Part shown: positions 4,172-50,606 of the stretch, piece after piece
Numbering within the stretch: the first letter of the stretch is position 1
Layout: the number at the start of each line of letters is the position of its first letter
DNA from: Nitrosopumilus sp.
GTDB lineage: Archaea; Thermoproteota; Nitrososphaeria; Nitrososphaerales; Nitrosopumilaceae
Length of the DNA: 64,000 bases
Reading direction: 5' to 3'
NCBI GenBank assembly: GCA_965238275.1
Contig: OZ250186.1
Coordinates: 1,408,001-1,472,000, forward strand
The notes under the pieces: model-generated
Seen by the model: the letters and a program-made list of their open reading frames with translations, nothing else
The model's database searches: none
Told to the model about the DNA's origin: nothing
Made by a program: the position numbers and the translations under genes

Positions 4172-7100
4172 GTGCGGATTAATTTGGAATTTCGCATGGG
4201 CATGCCAGCGCATCCCTACATCTGCATGATGCTGCTTTTTGCCCTTGTCGCCGTGCCGGTATCATCAGCAGCCCAAGTTGAAGCGGACGGGGAGCCGTTT
4301 GTCACCACCTGGCGCACCACTACCCCGGACGAGTCCATAACCATCCCCGGATCCGGCACGTACACTATTGACTGGGGCGACGGAGCTGTATCTGCTGATG
4401 TCTCAGGGAGTCAGACTCACGAATATGCCGAACCCAGAGATTACCAGGTCCGCATATCAGGCGACTTTTCAGGCATCCATCTCAGAGGCGATCCAAACGC
4501 GGCAAAACTGCGATCCATAGATCAGTGGGGTGAGATGCAGTGGAGGTCAATGAGCTCGGCGTTTTCAGGCGCGTCAAACATGGTATATCGCGCAACCGAC
4601 ATACCGGATCTCTCGGCTGTGACCTACACGAATCAGATGTTTCAGGGTGCCACCTCCTTTGACGGCGACCTCTCTGGATGGAATGTCTCGGAGGTAATCA
4701 ACATGAGTCAAATGTTCTTTAATGCCATCTCCTTTGACGGCGACCTCTCTGACTGGGATGTCTCGTCTGTAAACGACATGAGGAGTATGTTTGCCCACGC
4801 CACCTCTTTTGACGGCGACCTCTCTGGATGGAATGTCTCGGAGGTAACCAACATGGTCAATATGTTCTATCTTGCCTCCTCATTCAACAGCGACATATCT
4901 GACTGGGACACCTCGTCGGTAACATCCATGCGCTGGTTGCTTGCCCAGGCCTCCTCATTCAACAGCGACATATCTGACTGGGACACCTCGTCGGTAACTG
5001 ACATGCGTAATATGTTCTGGAATGTCTCCTCATTCAACGGCGACATTTCAAAATGGGACACCTCGTCGGTAAACAACATGAGGATGATGTTCAACGGTGC
5101 CTCCTCATTCAACAGCGACATATCTGACTGGGACACCTCGTCGGTAACTGACATGAGCGTGATGTTCGCCTTTACCTCCTTTGACGGCGACATTTCAAAA
5201 TGGGACACCTCGTCTGTCGTCAACATGTTCAGCATGTTCTCCGGGGCCACCTCCTTCAACGGCGACATTTCAAAATGGGACACCTCGTCGGTAACTGACA
5301 TGCGCGTGATGTTCCTCGATGCCTCCTCCTTTGACGGCGACATTTCAAAATGGGACACCTCGTCTGTAAGCACGATGACCTGGATGTTCCTCGATGCCTC
5401 CTCATTCAACAGTGACATCTCTGACTGGGACGTATCATCTGCAACCGACATGCAAGCTATGTTCCACCGTGCCCCCTCATTCAACCAAGACTTGGGGAAA
5501 TGGTACATCGTGCTTGAGGATTCTGCCATTGACCCTTCCACTGGAATAATCGGAAACATTGCCGCGCAGAATTCGTACCTTGACGGGCAGAATCCCACGT
5601 ACGGTATAGGCTCCGGCGAGGGCGCCGAGTTCTTTGAGATGGACGGATCCACCCTAAAGCTAAGCGGGTCCCCGACCAGCCCGATCCATACAGTCACCAT
5701 AACTGCTACTGGTGATATCTTTGGTACGGACAACTCCCGCATACTTGACATATCCGTGGACGGCACGCCCGCGCCCCCGGTTCCCGCCGACGGTGATCCC
5801 TTTGTCACCACTTGGCGCACCACATCCCCCGGCGAGTCGATAACCATCCCGGTTGGCGGCACCTCAGACACGTATACGGTAGACTGGGGAGATGGGACCG
5901 TATCCGAGGATGTCTCGGGGGATCAGACCCACGCATATTCCGTTGCCGGAGATCACACGGTCAGCATATATGGCGATTTTACAAGAATTTATCTAAACGG
6001 CAAGCAACCCAATGCGAACAAACTACAGTCGATAGACCAGTGGGGCGACATGCAATGGGCCTCGATGAACTCGGCGTTTAGGGGCGCGACAAGCATGGCA
6101 TACGCGGCAGACGACGTACCTGATCTCTCTGCCGTGACCGATATGAGCCGGATGTTTTATGGCGTCTCATCATTCAACGGCGACGTCTCCGGCTGGGACG
6201 TCTCGTCGGTGACTAGCATGTTGGGAATATTTGAAGGAACCTCCGGCTTTAGCGGCGACGTCTCCGGCTGGGACGTCTCGTCGGTTACCGACATGTCGGA
6301 GATGTTTGATGGTACCTCCGGCTTTAGCGGCGACGTCTCCGGCTGGGACGTCTCGTCGGTTACCGACATGTCGGAGATGTTTGATGGTACCTCCGGCTTT
6401 AGCGGCGACGTCTCCGGCTGGGACGTCTCGTCGGTTACCGACATGTCGGGGATGTTCTTCGGTATCAACTCATTCAATAGCGATGTCTCCGGGTGGGACG
6501 TCTCGTCGGTTACCGACATGCATGACATGTTCGCCTTGGCAGATTCCTTTGACGGCGACATCTCCGGGTGGGGCATCTCGTCGGTTACCGACATGCATGG
6601 CATGTTCCAAGATGCAGACTCTTTTGACGGCAACCTCTCCGGGTGGGACACCTCGTCGGTAACCGACATGGACAGTATGTTTGCAGGTGCCTCCTCCTTC
6701 AACACGGACATCTCCGGGTGGGACACCTCGTCGGTAACCGACATGGACAGTATGTTTGCAGGTGCCTCCTCCTTCAACACGGACATATCCGGCTGGGACG
6801 TCTCGTCGGTTACCGGCATGGACAGTATGTTTGCAGGTGCCTCCTCCTTCAACACGGACATCTCCGGGTGGGACACCTCGTCGGTAACCGACATGCGCAG
6901 TATGTTTGCAGGTGCCTCCTCCTTCAACACGGACATATCCGGCTGGGACACCTCGTCGGTTACCGGCATGGACAGTATGTTTGCAGGTGCCTCCTCCTTC
7001 AACACGGACATATCCGGCTGGGACACCTCGTCGGTTACCGGCATGCGCAGTATGTTTGAGGGTGCCTCCTCCTTCAACACGGGCATATCCGGCTGGGACG

Positions 7101-9142
7101 TCTCGTCGGTGACTGACATGCAGGCCATGTTCGGCGGAGCCGACGAGTTTGACCAGAACCTGGGAAAATGGTACATAGTGCTCGAGGATCCCGCTGCTGA
7201 TCCCGCCGCTTCCGGAACAATCGGAAACATTGCCGCGCAGAATTCGTACCTTGACGGGCAGGATCCCACGTACGGCATAGGCTCCGGCGAGGGCGCCGAG
7301 TTCTTTGAGATGGACGGATCCACCCTAAAGATAAGCACGCCCCCGACCAGTCCAGTCGACGCCATCAACATAACTGCCGCCGGAAGAATTTTCGGCACCG
7401 ACAACTACCGCATACTTGACATATCCGTGGACGGCACGCCCGCGCCCCCGGTTCCCGCCGACGGTGATCCCTTTGTCACCACTTGGCGCACCACATCCCC
7501 CGGCGAGTCGATAACCATCCCCGCCAGGGGAGCGGCAGGCACATACTCGATAGATTGGGGCGACGGACGCGTATCTGCCAACATCACAGGAGGCCAGACA
7601 CACACGTATGACGATGCCGGAACACATACAGTCAGCATATCCGGCGACTTTACGAGAATTTATCTTGCAGACCAGGAATCCAACGCGCAAAAACTGCAGT
7701 CGATAGAACAGTGGGGCGGCATTCAATGGGAGTCCATGGGCTCAGCGTTCAGGGGCGCCTCAAACATGGCATACAACGCGACTGACGCCCCCGATCTCTC
7801 ACGCGTCACCTACATGGAGCGCATGTTTGCAGGAGCGTCCTCCTTTGACGGCGACCTCTCGAATTGGGACGTCTCTGGCGTGACCGACATGTCGTACCTG
7901 TTCCAAGACGCGACCTCGTTTGACTCCGACCTGTCTGACTGGGACGTCTCGCGCGTGACGGACATGGACGGAATGTTCTGGAACGCGACCTCGTTTGACT
8001 CCGACCTGTCTGACTGGGACGTCTCGCGCGCCACCAACATGTACGGCATGTTTGCAAGTGCCAGCTCCTTTGACTCCGACCTGTCTGACTGGGACGTCTC
8101 GCGCGTGACGGACATGGCCAACATGTTCAACCGCGCCAGCTCCTTTGATTCTGACCTCTTGGATTGGGACGTCTCGCGCGTCACCAACATGTACGCCATG
8201 TTTTCAATCGCCAGCTCCTTCAGCGGCGACATCGCAAACTGGAACGTCTCGCGCGTCACCGATATGGCAGACATGCTCAGGTCGACAAACTCCTTCAACA
8301 GCGACATCTCCGGCTGGGAGATCTCTAGTACGGTCCGCCTGAGTACCATGCTTTATCGCGCCGACGCGTTTGACCAAAACCTGGGTCCGTGGTATATCAT
8401 CCTGGATGACGACTCCATCAGGGGCAGCGACATACCCGGCACGGTCGGGAGCATCTCCACACGAAACCCGTACCTGGACGACCAGAACCCGTCATACGGC
8501 ATAGGCTCGGGCGGGGACTCTGCCCACTTTGAGGTTACAGGCAGCATCCTCAGGATGGTATCTGTGCCGGACGGTCACGAGGGACCCTACACGGTAAACG
8601 TAACGTCTGCCGGGGGCTACGGCACGGACAACTCCAGGACACTTGGGATAACTGTGATTCCATACAACAATACATCCCCTGACGCTGCAGTCGATCCAGA
8701 ATCTGATATCACCGTAGACACGCCAATCGACACCGGACCTACCGTGAAACCTGACCCCGTAGAGGTTGAACCCGAACCTATACCAAAATCAACCGGGGAT
8801 CCCGGATCAGTTGCAGAACCCGAACCGGTTGCAGAACCCGAACCGGTTACAGAGCCTAAGCCTACAGAGATTAAAATAGATCCAGAGAATGTTGCAAAAC
8901 CCGAACCGGCTGCAGAACCTAAGCCTACAGAGATTAAAGTGGATCCAGAACCGGGTATAGATCCCGAACCAACAGGGACGGATCCAGAAACTGCCGCAAA
9001 CACAGAGCCAACCACACAACCAGGACAGGAATCACCCACAGAACATGACGCCGCTGAAACGTGTGACACGGCCGACTGTGATTCGGATCCATTTTCACCC
9101 ATCCTCGACTGGTTTAGATCGATATTTGGATTCCTTTTCTAA
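4172..9142 (+). CDS. giant secreted BspA-family/DUF285 repeat surface protein with PKD-like domains
   Basis: Signal peptide; three modules of [17 protein letters not shown] plus 25-aa repeats ([24 protein letters not shown]); Pro/Glu-rich C-terminal linker. Confidence 0.92.
6171..7120 (+). repeat. 75-bp coding tandem repeats (DUF285 units), several near-identical
   Basis: Repeated ggctgggacgtctcgtcggttaccgacatg / gggacacctcgtcggtaaccgacatggacagtatg units. Confidence 0.9.
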
Positions 9143-46189: not shown

Positions 46190-47353
46190 ATTACTATAAA
46201 ACGATCAAACCACGCACAAAAGTTTGGAAAGCTGGTTTTTGACGACGGAACCGTTCTTGACGGTAATGGGTTTGGCAGCTCCACGACAGGGTTTGGCGAG
46301 ATTGTATTCAATACCGGGATGGTCGGGTATACCGAGGCGCTGACTGATCCCTCGTATAACGGCCAGATCCTGACACTCACGTACCCCCTGATTGGAAACT
46401 ATGGCGTTCCGGATCCCGGCGCAGTTGATGCTGACGGAATCCCCAAATTCTTCGAGTCTGACAGGATACAGGTCCGGGGGCTGGTGGTCCACGAGCTGTC
46501 CCTTGTGGCAAGCCACTGGAACCTCTTCATGACGCTTGACCAATGGATGCACAAGGAGGGAATCCCGGGAATATCCGGAATAGACACGCGCCAGCTTACC
46601 AAGAAGCTCAGAACCGGCGGCGTGATGATGGCAGCGCTTGCAGTCTCTGACTCTGAGATAGACGTCAAGCAGGTGCAAGAGGGCCTTGCATCCGCTGCGC
46701 ACTACGACTCTGAGCAGTTCATGGATGCAGTATCCACAGGACAGGCAAAAACCTACGGGGATGAGTCCGAGTGCGTGGTGGTGATTGACACTGGCGCAAA
46801 GAATGCAATACTGAGAAACATCCGCAGCATAGGATACCGCGCAGTACTGCTCCCGTGGAACACCCCGTACGAGACGGTAATGTCGTACCGGCCGCGGGGC
46901 GTGGTGCTGAGCAGCGGCCCGGGGGATCCGCAGAGGTGTCCGGAGACCATCGACACCGTAAGGCAGCTGATGCGCAACGACGTTCCGACCCTTGGAATAT
47001 GCCTGGGTGCGCAGATAATGGGAATTGCAGGAAACGCCGATACGTACAAGCTAAAGTACGGGCACCGGGGACAGAACAAGCCGTGCCTCAACCTGGAGAA
47101 CAACCAGGTGTATGTCACAAGCCAGAACCATGGCTACGGCATAACGCCGGAATCCCTTGAGGGTTCCGAGTTTGACTTGTGGTTTACAAACGCAGACGAC
47201 AAGACAGTCGAGGGGATAAGACACAAGACGCGCAGCTGCATTGCTGTGCAGTTCCATCCCGAGGCCGCGCCAGGCCCGCACGACTGCAAATTCGTCTTTG
47301 AAGAGCTCAAAGGCCTTATGGAGAAGGAGGAGGGGTGTCCTGCCAAAGAATGA
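46190..47353 (+). CDS. carA: carbamoyl-phosphate synthase small subunit
   Basis: GKLVFDDGT..GEIVFNTGMVGY, GICLGAQ, GHRGQN, QFHPE; conserved N-terminus lies upstream of the first ATG. Confidence 0.95.
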   Translation: MTIKRSNHAQKFGKLVFDDGTVLDGNGFGSSTTGFGEIVFNTGMVGYTEALTDPSYNGQILTLTYPLIGNYGVPDPGAVDADGIPKFFESDRIQVRGLVVHELSLVASHWNLFMTLDQWMHKEGIPGISGIDTRQLTKKLRTGGVMMAALAVSDSEIDVKQVQEGLASAAHYDSEQFMDAVSTGQAKTYGDESECVVVIDTGAKNAILRNIRSIGYRAVLLPWNTPYETVMSYRPRGVVLSSGPGDPQRCPETIDTVRQLMRNDVPTLGICLGAQIMGIAGNADTYKLKYGHRGQNKPCLNLENNQVYVTSQNHGYGITPESLEGSEFDLWFTNADDKTVEGIRHKTRSCIAVQFHPEAAPGPHDCKFVFEELKGLMEKEEGCPAKE

Positions 47354-50300
47354 GTCGCTAAAGAAAATTCTTGTACTGGGCAGTGGGGCAATAAAAATCG
47401 GAGAAGCCGGCGAGAGTCGCTAAAACGACCGCCAGTTTGACTACTCCGGTAGCCAGTGCCTCAAGGCAATACGCGAGGACGGACTGAAGAGTGTGCTTAT
47501 CAACCCAAACATAGCCACCATTCAGACTGACACCAGGTTTGCAGACCAGGTGTACCTTCTTCCCGTGACGCCCGAGTACGTGGAATCGATCATAGAAAAG
47601 GAGAGGCCAGACGGCATAATGCTGGCATACGGTGGGCAGACTGCGCTGAACTGCGGCGTAAGGATCTCCGAATCCGGCATACTGCAAAAGTACGGCGTCG
47701 GCGTCCTTGGAACCCAGATAGAGGGGATTCAAAGGACCGAGGACCGGCAGCTCTTCAAGGATGCGATGACCGGGATAGGGGTGCCTGTGCTCAAGAGCAG
47801 GACGGTTACAAACTTTGCAGACGCCAAGAATGCCGCAGAGGAGCTGTCCTACCCCGTGATTATTCGGGTGGCCTACACCCTGGGTGGCAGGGGCGGGGGA
47901 GTGGCGCACAACGAGATCGAGCTGTACGAGATAGTCGAGCGCGGCATCAAGGCAAGCATGGTGGGCCAGGTGCTCATAGAGGAGTACATCGGGGACTGGA
48001 AGCAGATAGAGTACGAGGTGATGCAGGACTATGACGGAAACAACATAGTCGTCTGCAACATGGAAAACGTCCTCTCCATGAGGGTGCACACGGGGGACAA
48101 CATAGTGGTTGCCCCGTCCCAGACGATCGACAACCACGAGTACCACATGCTGCGCTCGGCTGCCCTGCGCGCCACAAAGCATGTCCGGATCGTGGGGGAG
48201 TGCAACATACAGTATGCCCTGGCGCCCGACTCGGACCGGTATGCGGCAATCGAGATAAACCCCCGCCTTTCGCGCTCCTCTGCCCTTGCAAGCAAGGCCA
48301 CAGGATACCCCCTTGCATACATGTCTGCCAAGATAGGCCTTGGCTACAACCTGTCCGAACTGGTCAACCGAATCACAAAGAGCACCACTGCCTGTTTTGA
48401 GCCGTCCCTTGACTACGTGGTGTGCAAGCATCCGCGGTGGGACTTTTCAAAGTTCGAGCTTGCCAACAGGAGGCTGGGCCCCTCCATGAAGTCCGTAGGC
48501 GAGGTGATGGCAGTCGGCCGAACATTTGAGGAGTCGCTGCAAAAGTCAATCCGCATGCTTGACATCGGGCGCGACGGGCTGGTCCTGAACCGGGAGAACG
48601 GCAGGACGTACGACGAGGAGGAGATAGAGGAGAAGCTCTCACACCATGACGACTGCATACTGTACCACGTGGCCGTTGCGCTGAGGATGGGCATACCGGT
48701 GGACAGAATCTACCACCTGTCTGCAATAGATCCGTGGTTCATTGAAAAGATAAGGAACATCGTGGCCGTGGAGGATGCCCTCAGGTCCCGGGAGCTTGAT
48801 GCGGGCCTTCTCTGGAATGCAAAGAGGATGGGGTTTGCCGACAAGCAGATTGCGCGTGCAAAGGACAACTGCACGCAGGATTCGGTGCGCGCCCTGCGCA
48901 AAAAGCTTGGCGTGCTGCCGTCAGTAAAGCAGATAGACACGCTTGCAGCAGAGTGGCCTGCCGTAACCAACTACCTGTACATGACGTACGGGGGGGACTC
49001 TTCTGACATCAGGGTGTCGCCTGACGAGAAGGGAATCGTCGTAGTCGGCGCCGGGCCGTACCGGATAGGAAGCAGCGTGGAGTTTGACTGGGGGACAGTC
49101 AACATGGTCTGGGGGCTCCAGGAGAACGGGGAGAAGAACGTCTCTGTGGTCAACTGCAATCCCGAGACGGTGTCGACTGACTATGACATATGCACCAGGC
49201 TGTACTTTGAGGAGCTGACCCAGGAGAGGATCCTGGACATTACCGAGTTTGAGAACCCAAAGGGGGTCATCACGTGCGTCGGGGGGCAGACTGCCAACAA
49301 CCTCACCCTCGGGCTCGCCGAACACGGCGTGCCAATCCTGGGAACAAGCGCGCGCGACGTGGACATGGCAGAGAACCGCTCAAGGTTCAGCGGGGAGCTT
49401 GACAAGCTTCACATACAGCAGCCGCGGTGGCAGGAGTTCCTGAGCCTGAAGGAGGCAAGATCCTTTGCGCAGGACGTGGGGTTCCCCGTGATAGTCCGTC
49501 CCTCGTACGTCCTGTCGGGGGCGGCCATGAAGGTGGTCTGGTCGCAGGGCGAGCTGAAGAGGTACGTCAAGGAGGCCACCGACGTCTCGCCGGATCACCC
49601 CGTGGTGATATCCAAGTTCATGCTCGACTCCCTCGAGGTGGACGTTGACGGGGTCTGCGACGGGAGCCGCGTGGTGATAGGCGCGCTAGTCGAGCACATC
49701 GACAGTGCCGGGGTGCACTCCGGCGATGCGATGATGTGCATCCCGCCGTGGCGCCTGAGCAACAAGATAATCGAGACGATAAACGAGTATGCAAAAAAGA
49801 TAGCCCTGACCTTCAACGTGCGCGGCCCGTTCAACCTGCAGTTTCTCATACACGACGACCACGTGTACGTGATCGAGCTTAACATCCGGGCCTCGCGCTC
49901 CATGCCGTTTGTCTCAAAGCTTGTCCGGACCAACCTGATATCCCTTGCATCCAAGGCGATCCTGGGCATGCCGCTGCCTGCGATACCTGAAAACAAGTGG
50001 CAGAGGATAAGCAACTTTGGAATCAAGGTCCCGCAGTTCTCCTTCATGCAGCTTGACGGGGCAGACATCGCGCTGGGAGTGGAGATGCAGTCGACGGGGG
50101 AGGCGGCATGCTTTGGAAACAGCTTTTATGACGCCCTCTCCAAGGGGCTCACCTCGGTGGGCTACAACCTGCCCAAAAGCGGCGCGGCCCTGGTGACTGT
50201 GGGCGGCGCGCAAAACAAGAAGGCCCTCGTCGCAACCGTTGCCAAGCTCAGGGATCTGGGGTTTAGAATACTGGCGACAGAGCACACTGCAGAGTTCCTC

Positions 50301-50606
50301 CAGGAGAGGATCGGAGACGTGGAGACTGTACACAAGATATCAGAGCCTGACAGGAAGCCCAACATCGCGGATCTTCTCTACGAGAGGACCATAGACTTTA
50401 TCATAAACATCCCTAGCACCTCCACGCTTGAAAAGTACGTCGGGATGCTTGAAGACGAGTACCAGATTAGGAGAAAGTCACTGGAGCTTGGCATTCCGGT
50501 GCTGACTACGATCGAGCTTGCAGAGTCGTTTGTAAACACGCTGGAGTGGCTCAAGACAAACCAGACCACAAGGGAGCCCATCGAGCCCTACGACAAGCTC
50601 GACTAG
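47340..50606 (+). CDS. carB: carbamoyl-phosphate synthase large subunit, join(47340..47414,47436..50606)
   Basis: PKNESLKKILVLGSGAIKIGEAGE | FDYSGSQCLKA.. contiguous after removing 21 nt; two ATP-grasp domains plus MGS domain. Confidence 0.95.
47415..47435 (+). other. putative BHB/BHL-type archaeal mRNA intron
   Basis: AGTCGCTAAAACGACCGCCAG with in-frame TAA; 4-bp helix GGCG/CGCC, 3-nt bulge AGA, internal stem GTCG/CGAC. Confidence 0.85.

Follow-up and report, generated by a model that had tools for sequence, protein, structure and literature searches.

The precursor mRNA of cbf5 reportedly carries a bulge-helix-bulge (BHB) intron, a case said to go back to Watanabe in 2002 and Yoshinari in 2006. 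By 2020, the only BHB substrates on record beyond tRNA and rRNA were this crenarchaeal cbf5 mRNA and the 5' leader of HVO_1309, according to PMC7714728, and Yokobori 2009 (PMC2738675) describes the cbf5 introns as patchy, with repeated gain or loss. Here we describe a 21-nucleotide (nt) insert at 47415-47435 in carB, a carbamoyl-phosphate synthetase gene of Nitrosopumilus sp. (assembly GCA_965238275.1, contig OZ250186.1, positions 1,408,001 to 1,472,000 of the forward strand; we call this whole stretch of 64,000 nt the window, and count coordinates from its first base). It is highly likely that the insert is a relaxed BHB intron, of the bulge-helix-loop (BHL) type, lying within the coding sequence of the pre-mRNA of carB, and that it is removed by the splicing endonuclease EndA together with RtcB. 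A first-pass annotation, made from the letters of the window alone, had proposed such an intron with the junction GGC GAG|TTT GAC, and the proposal is now supported by the fixed site and variable length of the insert, by covariation, by the junctions of intron-less relatives, by selection on the gene, by the enzymes encoded in the genome, and by contig breaks in one metatranscriptome run (X1).

The carB insert can be compared with several described systems, the first being cbf5. As in the Crenarchaeota, it is a short coding-region intron with a relaxed BHB fold and a patchy distribution, in a host with a hetero-oligomeric endonuclease. The carB insert lies in the gene of a metabolic enzyme whereas cbf5 encodes an RNA-modification protein, its hosts are mesophilic ammonia oxidisers and their relatives while those of the cbf5 intron are crenarchaeal, and the sampling is far wider for carB (223/401 genomes). 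Splicing of cbf5 has been shown experimentally, whereas that of carB is predicted from sequence. With the BHB and BHL introns of pre-tRNAs, as treated in PMC6379350 and PMC3241643, the insert shares the 3-nt bulge, the 4-base-pair (bp) helix, the second site, the size range and the predicted enzymes; it differs in its mRNA host, in a flanking helix made of codons, so that the exon sequence would be doubly constrained, and in a product that is a reading frame and not a folded RNA. The BHB intron in the 5' untranslated region of Haloferax volcanii HVO_1309 (PMC7714728) is likewise an mRNA substrate of the splicing endonuclease, but it sits in an untranslated leader and interrupts no codons, and the endonuclease type of its host differs from that of the carB host. 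Finally, eukaryotic HAC1/XBP1 splicing, which PMC4090602 mentions, resembles what we propose in the protein-only excision of a short coding intron, joining by a tRNA ligase, and a frame that is restored or changed. There the nuclease is IRE1 and the reaction is a regulated stress switch, whereas for carB we propose the tRNA endonuclease.

The insert splits the conserved CarB motif GEAGE|FDYSG: GGC GAG (47409-47414) is followed by the 21 nt and then by TTT GAC TAC TCC GGT. In the carB frame ..ILVLGSGAIKIGEAGE precedes the insert and FDYSGSQCLK.. follows it, while the insert itself reads S R * N D R Q with the TAA at 47421-47423. Downstream of the insert the frame is open for 1056 codons, to a stop at 50606. 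When the product is aligned to solved CarB structures, the seven codons stand out as an exact insertion between ..IGQAC and EFDYSG (1bxr_A, E 9.6e-73). Both the split of the CarB N-terminus by 21 nt with an in-frame TAA and the intactness of the rest of carB, as first read from the window, are thereby confirmed. The features of the element are as follows.

47340-47414, + strand: carB exon 1, ending ..GGC GAG; start uncertain; aligned to residues 2-24 of solved CarB
47415-47435, + strand: predicted 21-nt intron, from sequence, relatives and the CarB structure alignment
47436-50606, + strand: carB exon 2, 1056 codons plus stop; the only carB in the genome
47397-47406, + strand: outer exon-exon helix, 5' strand AUCGGAG.AG; across 41 sequences its 8 pairs form in 99.1% of cells, and all changes are to G-U
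47409-47412, + strand: central helix, 5' strand GGCG, within exon 1; from fold and covariation
47413-47415, + strand: 5' bulge A-G|A, 3 nt, with the predicted cut after 47414; from the fold and a 41-row alignment
47416-47429, + strand: predicted intron hairpin GUCG-CUAAAA-CGAC, stem 47416-19/47426-29, containing the TAA at 47421-47423
47430-47433, + strand: 3' strand of the central helix, CGCC, the final part of the intron; from fold and covariation
47434-47440, + strand: relaxed loop that contains the predicted 3' splice site (A-G|U, cut after 47435); from sequence and RNAalifold
47441-47450, + strand: 3' strand of the outer helix, CU.CUCCGGU; from fold and relatives

All helices, the bulge, the hairpin and the loop that the first-pass annotation had named are present in the window. 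The outer helix pairs 47397-47408 with 47439-47450 at 10 of 12 positions (one G-U included), and the central helix GGCG/CGCC is Watson-Crick at 4/4. The minimum free energy (MFE) fold, at -21.2 kcal/mol (z -2.1; 6/200 shuffles were as good), retains the hairpin and the central helix, with the bulge of 3 nt between them. This single-sequence signal is modest, and the case rests on comparative data. EndA cuts after the second bulge nucleotide, a rule that places the cuts in the window after 47414 and after 47435; sequence alone leaves up to 2 nt of latitude in where the junction falls. At the 5' site the motif is canonical. At the 3' site we found no canonical 3-nt bulge closed by a flanking helix (hBHBh'): 5-7 unpaired bases follow CGCC before the outer helix resumes, as expected from the initial description of this site as relaxed, and this assigns the element to the relaxed bulge-helix-loop form and not to canonical BHB, by the definition in PMC6379350.

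The same architecture recurs in relatives. In every one of the 51 unique relatives with the insert (51/51), at least 3 of the 4 central pairs were kept and a stem of 3-8 bp abutted the helix, and the intron stems among them comprised at least 15 different sequences. We aligned 41 sequences with inserts of 20-22 nt (alignment A1). In this alignment the proposed partners paired in 95.3% of cells, against 90.2% in shuffles, and the covariation score was 0.230 against 0.134 in shuffles, with 0/500 shuffles reaching the observed value in either case; kinship among the sequences inflates such covariation counts. Partners slid out of register paired in at most 53.8% of cells. Changes on both sides were seen in 4/5 intron-stem pairs. 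The central helix was paired in 93.9% of cells in the 41 sequences, with the variants GGUG/CACC and GGUG/CACU within the order and GCGG/CCGC in three genomes outside it. The 5' bulge consisted of three unpaired bases in 41/41 rows; 40 rows have A-R-A, the exception being L086 with A-G-U. RNAalifold, unaided, predicts the same helices. Even with kinship allowed for, stems so varied from family to family are difficult to explain in another way.

How widely the insert occurs was assessed with a pattern of exon 1, 15 to 35 arbitrary bases and exon 2 (exon1-N{15,35}-exon2). It matched 223/401 genomes sampled from the order, while the reversed-pattern control gave 0 matches in the same sample; the exon parts of the pattern were exact, which makes these genome counts lower bounds. 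The total takes in two unpublished genomes (G279 and G287) and is 221/399 without both. Carriers make up 71/112 genomes in the host's own family, 9/9 in family f4, 96/111 in f15, 40/97 in f10, 2/4 in f13 and 1/1 each in f2, f3, f8 and f11. The pattern had no match in f5, f6, f7 (0/13), f9 (0/11), f12 (0/10), f14 (0/15) and f16-f20. Within the host's own genus 11/46 genomes carry the insert, as do nearly all other genera of the family. A looser pattern run over 401 genomes of the phylum matched 3/341 outside the order, in two families; this search used one restrictive pattern, and more carriers may exist there. The three outside loci, L177 (genome G547), L178 (G577) and L179 (G583), have inserts of 28, 28 and 19 nt, respectively, at the same carB site, in genes 57-60% identical to the carB of the window and with an exon 1 that reads IGQAAE. 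Inserts at the same position whose helices covary, both of them, are thus present in relatives, as would be expected of the intron first proposed here.

The distribution also bears on whether the insert is a defect. The in-frame stop lies 26 codons into carB and ORF callers (ORF, open reading frame) would begin at GTG 47493, which on its face could mean that carB is a pseudogene or decaying, or that the 21 nt are an assembly error. We consider this almost certainly wrong. The genome is a single contig of 2,216,668 bases, 99.92% complete, and this is its sole carB, the next-best matches being other ATP-grasp proteins at 27-37% identity. The 21 nt are present with 0 differences in contigs of two more runs, X3 (2979 nt) and X4 (1770 nt), belonging to two studies, which speaks against an assembly error, although X3 or X4 may itself be the source of the assembly. 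An error or a decaying gene would also be at odds with an insert found in 223/401 genomes with its structure conserved, among them the named enrichment or culture strains Candidatus Nitrosotenuis chungbukensis MY2, Candidatus Nitrosopumilus salarius BD31 and Nitrosopumilus sp. b1. The inserts of these three strains measure 21, 22 (a frameshifting length) and 21 nt, respectively. Cultures of ammonia-oxidising archaea (AOA) grow in mineral medium and so need carbamoyl-phosphate synthetase. The ratio of nonsynonymous to synonymous substitution rates (dN/dS) was 0.076 between the host genome and G017 over 754 aligned codons, and 0.053 and 0.036 between other carriers, one of them with a 22-nt insert; most pairs were saturated at synonymous sites and yielded no ratio. 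No compared genome has a downstream stop in carB, and 20 exon bases on each side, along with much of the insert, are nearly unchanged even in distant, saturated pairs. carB is under strong purifying selection (dN/dS 0.04-0.08).

We examined 170 loci, of which 168 fit the exon pattern (L031 and L132 were dropped), giving 79 unique intron-bearing and 43 unique intron-less sequences. Insert lengths among the 79 were 17 nt (1 sequence), 18 nt (2), 20 nt (7), 21 nt (48), 22 nt (14), 26 nt (1), 27 nt (2), 30 nt (3) and 33 nt (1), and in 23/79 the length is not a multiple of 3. Every unique insert whose length is a multiple of 3 has an in-frame stop (56/56); by our estimate 21 random bases would hold a stop by chance about a quarter of the time, and kinship inflates the count of 56/56. 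Inserts without the loop TAA finish in ..CGC TAA at their 3' end. The predicted junction is exactly what intron-less relatives show, ..GGN GAR TTY GAY.., and the predicted excision restores the sequence of both the intron-less orthologues and solved CarB. The outer-helix pairs (G-U allowed) are complete, 8/8, in 78/79 intron-bearing sequences versus 6-8 of 8 in intron-less ones, which gives no separation between the two classes. Codon choice differs more: ATC is used in 76/79 intron-bearing versus 13/43 intron-less sequences, GGA in 75/79 versus 7/43, and TCC in 70/79 versus 3/43, a contrast to which base composition and kinship could contribute and on which we do not lean.

These lengths and junctions allow splicing to be weighed against a reading in which the RNA stays uncut and the insert is bridged in translation, by a ribosomal hop of the phage T4 gene 60 type or by stop readthrough. 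In favour of such bridging, a stop codon and a hairpin directly follow the conserved Gly-Glu, the insert is short, and no spliced RNA is among the contigs listed. Readthrough, however, cannot handle the 23/79 inserts that shift the frame. Gene 60 hopping requires matching take-off and landing codons, but here the take-off codon is GAR while the triplet before TTY is CAG, CAA, TAA, TAG, AAA, AAG, AAT or CAT, and never GAR (51 unique sequences). The features that are conserved, a 3-nt bulge and a 4-bp helix separating the two sites, are of the BHB type, and RNA contigs of a relative (described below) break at the exact boundaries of the insert. Bridging in translation is accordingly very improbable, and excision of the insert from the RNA is preferred.

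As for the enzymes, the genome holds two genes with an EndA domain (G000:C1:1563654-1563893 and 2151852-2152106), of which one is alpha-like and the other beta-like. One product, of 191 residues, is similar to chain B of the Aeropyrum heterotetramer 3p1z (E 1.2e-41); the alignment is gapless across the Crenarchaea-specific loop and puts Lys49 and Lys51 opposite K44 and R46. The other, of 200 residues, resembles fused-dimer profiles in their N-terminal structural half. There is one RtcB gene (583 bits; 970311-971615). Thaumarchaeota are listed among the alpha2beta2 lineages in PMC4090602. Relaxed motifs are cut well only by (alpha-beta)2 and epsilon2 enzymes, according to PMC6379350, and PMC3241643 attributes the cutting of BHL introns to the Crenarchaea-specific loop and its lysine, one of the substrates there being the BHL mini-helix of Cenarchaeum symbiosum pre-tRNA-Tyr. 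From its gene content, the host is predicted to encode a two-subunit EndA of broad specificity with the specificity loop, plus RtcB. ARAGORN reported introns in 8/45 tRNA genes of the host, seven of them of 10-69 nt; the eighth, in a tRNA-Thr (G000:C1:1236860-1238237), has an implausible length of 1287 nt.

Removal by the two-subunit splicing endonuclease and RtcB would very probably follow from this enzyme set and the fold, although we infer the cuts, the ligation and the responsible enzymes alike. The insert might instead be excised from the RNA by other machinery, for example another structure-specific nuclease and ligase, a reading to which the non-canonical 3' site and the indirect case for EndA and RtcB lend something. 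The geometry, though, is that of EndA (a bulge of 3 nt and a helix of 4 bp, with the second site on the opposite strand), the genome has a broad-specificity EndA with the loop lysine as well as RtcB, and a scan of the window at Rfam gathering thresholds returned tRNA only, with no ribozyme and no group I or II intron. We know of no other archaeal system for the precise excision and ligation of some 20 nt. Overall we give other machinery a low probability. A self-splicing group I or II intron was considered separately and rejected: such introns have a catalytic core of a few hundred nt, whereas the inserts measure 17-33 nt, and Rfam shows only tRNA.

The proposed order of events, in which EndA and RtcB act on the carB message, would be as follows. 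carA and carB would be transcribed together, after which exon 1 (47397-47406) would pair with exon 2 (47441-47450), and GGCG at the end of exon 1 would form the 4-bp central helix with CGCC at the end of the intron. A-G-A would then be left as a 3-nt 5' bulge beside the 4-bp intron hairpin, with the 3' site in a looser loop. The (alpha-beta)2 endonuclease would cut after 47414 and after 47435, and RtcB would ligate the exons into a message for ..GEAGE-FDYSG.. and full-length CarB. Translation of an unspliced mRNA would end at the TAA and give no more than some 26 residues.

RNA from metatranscriptomes bears on this scheme. In run X1, from a relative that is about 92% alike, a 1296-nt contig has its own last base at 47414 and a 1925-nt contig has its first base at 47436, with no loose ends there. 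Breaks at both predicted sites fit an assembly bubble between spliced and unspliced forms; they are a hint only of splicing. In run X2, a loose end behind 47416 consists of 26 letters like carA near 47265-47290, agrees with neither spliced nor unspliced RNA, and is taken for a stray match of another organism's carA. Stretches of carB left uncovered by RNA in X1 and X2 carry no meaning, and the shares in these two runs are small (0.05-0.06), from which we draw no inference about habitat. We also noticed that the relative's contigs in both X1 and X2 have GGA inserted behind 47319, close to where carA codes for its Glu-rich C-terminus.

Several points weigh against the intron interpretation and temper the confidence placed in it. 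The X1 breaks were seen in a single run of a single study, in a relative and not in the host itself, and strain mixtures are possible there. A 980-nt contig of run X2, from the same study, reads through the intron unspliced, which may be pre-mRNA or library DNA, and no joined form (a 21-nt joint) is listed among the contigs of the searched runs. As to structure, the MFE fold pairs the 3' cut site (AAGC with GUUU) at a z of only -2.1, the 3' site departs from the canonical helix-closed 3-nt bulge, and the outermost central pair is G-A in 10/41 aligned sequences. With the intron some 75 nt into the ORF, its folding would face competition from a ribosome trailing the polymerase. Finally, that EndA is the cutter, rather than another nuclease, is something we infer from the geometry and the gene content.

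We next consider the history of the insert. A quick tree of carB was built from the first 200 residues of exon 2 in 108 rows, of which 61 have the insert and 47 lack it; the tree is weakly resolved and unrooted. The insert state needs at least 12 changes on this tree, at least 4 of them forced by well-supported branches, and one well-supported sister pair differs in insert state. Shuffled labels needed 35 changes on average, with 0/500 as low as 12. As the tree is unrooted and weakly resolved, it does not distinguish gain from loss. Nearly all members of most genera in the family have the insert, and this, together with the carriers outside the order, fits an old intron that was precisely lost several times, as has been described for cbf5 (PMC2738675). 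The intron seems to predate the order, given same-site introns in two outside families in which both strands of the central helix have changed.

Upstream of the insert, carB adjoins carA, whose features in the window are these.

46319-47353, + strand: ORF of carA (small subunit), from the ORF list; named from its position and the first-pass annotation
47351-47353, + strand: TGA stop of carA, overlapping the carB start region

The start of carB itself is unusual: 47340-47342 is CTG where relatives show ATG or TTG, and the same CTG occurs in the intron-bearing same-genus relatives L005-L007, L025 and L026. The next common in-frame start codon is TTG 47241, within carA. A further observation concerns the first 10 bases of the intron (47415-47424), which are exactly repeated at 47353-47362, 62 nt upstream, in the exon 1 codons for N-E-S-L-K. 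The upstream copy is coding and is also found, with 1-2 changes, in intron-less relatives. The repeat may be due to chance, may be a trace of the intron's origin, or may act as a competing partner for the intron's 3' arm.

We also scanned the genome for the motif at large. The scan gave 28,256 hits, 2,864 of which passed a lax ORF filter; requiring 60 or more open codons on each side and a length of at most 45 nt left 655, of which 68 had in-frame lengths. carB was recovered among these, while the remaining 67, on inspection by eye, resembled gene borders or ORFs in another frame; no homology test was applied to them, which leaves the scan undecided on further introns. The scan also met F-(N/D)-G-D-(I/L)-S-x-W-D-V-S repeats in very long ORFs, at about 6579-7875 of the window and at 1396293-1396687, 1244042 and 1255029 of the genome. 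The units are those of a repeat-protein family, which presumably resembles the DUF285 or BspA-like repeat. Several sequences of 44 nt or longer have identical copies at four or more genomic positions (126363, 484246, 1191399 and 1648489, and other sets), which suggests multi-copy elements or gene families.

Full-text literature searches, with subscription papers and supplements outside their scope, found no report of a carB intron, and the AOA genome papers that were checked mention introns only in tRNA or rRNA. cbf5, initially named as the well-known archaeal mRNA intron, is the only coding-region case shown in the literature so covered. Coding-region introns of the tRNA type in archaea have rested on cbf5 alone for more than 20 years, and carB would be a second, broad case. 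Its natural variants (17-33 nt, many stems) could serve as a test set for endonuclease specificity. In practical terms, pipelines will label carB as truncated or as a pseudogene in carriers, which would distort metabolic reconstructions.

What the intron does for its hosts is a further question, and the first-pass annotation had already suggested a possible control point. The intron may be an old, selected gate on carbamoyl-phosphate synthesis and not a tolerated relic, a suggestion that we regard as rather unlikely. It derives from an intron that seems older than the order, an unspliced message that is always untranslatable, and a site about 75 nt from the start, at which folding and cutting would have to outrun the first ribosome arriving from carA. 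If the suggestion is true, CarB output would depend on EndA and RtcB activity and on the coupling of transcription and translation, and the synthesis of arginine and pyrimidines would be tied to the state of RNA processing or to growth rate. Independently of such a gate, the predicted intron is found in more than half of the sampled genomes of the order, in a central metabolic gene of globally important ammonia oxidisers, and mRNA splicing by the tRNA machinery would accordingly be more than a crenarchaeal curiosity.

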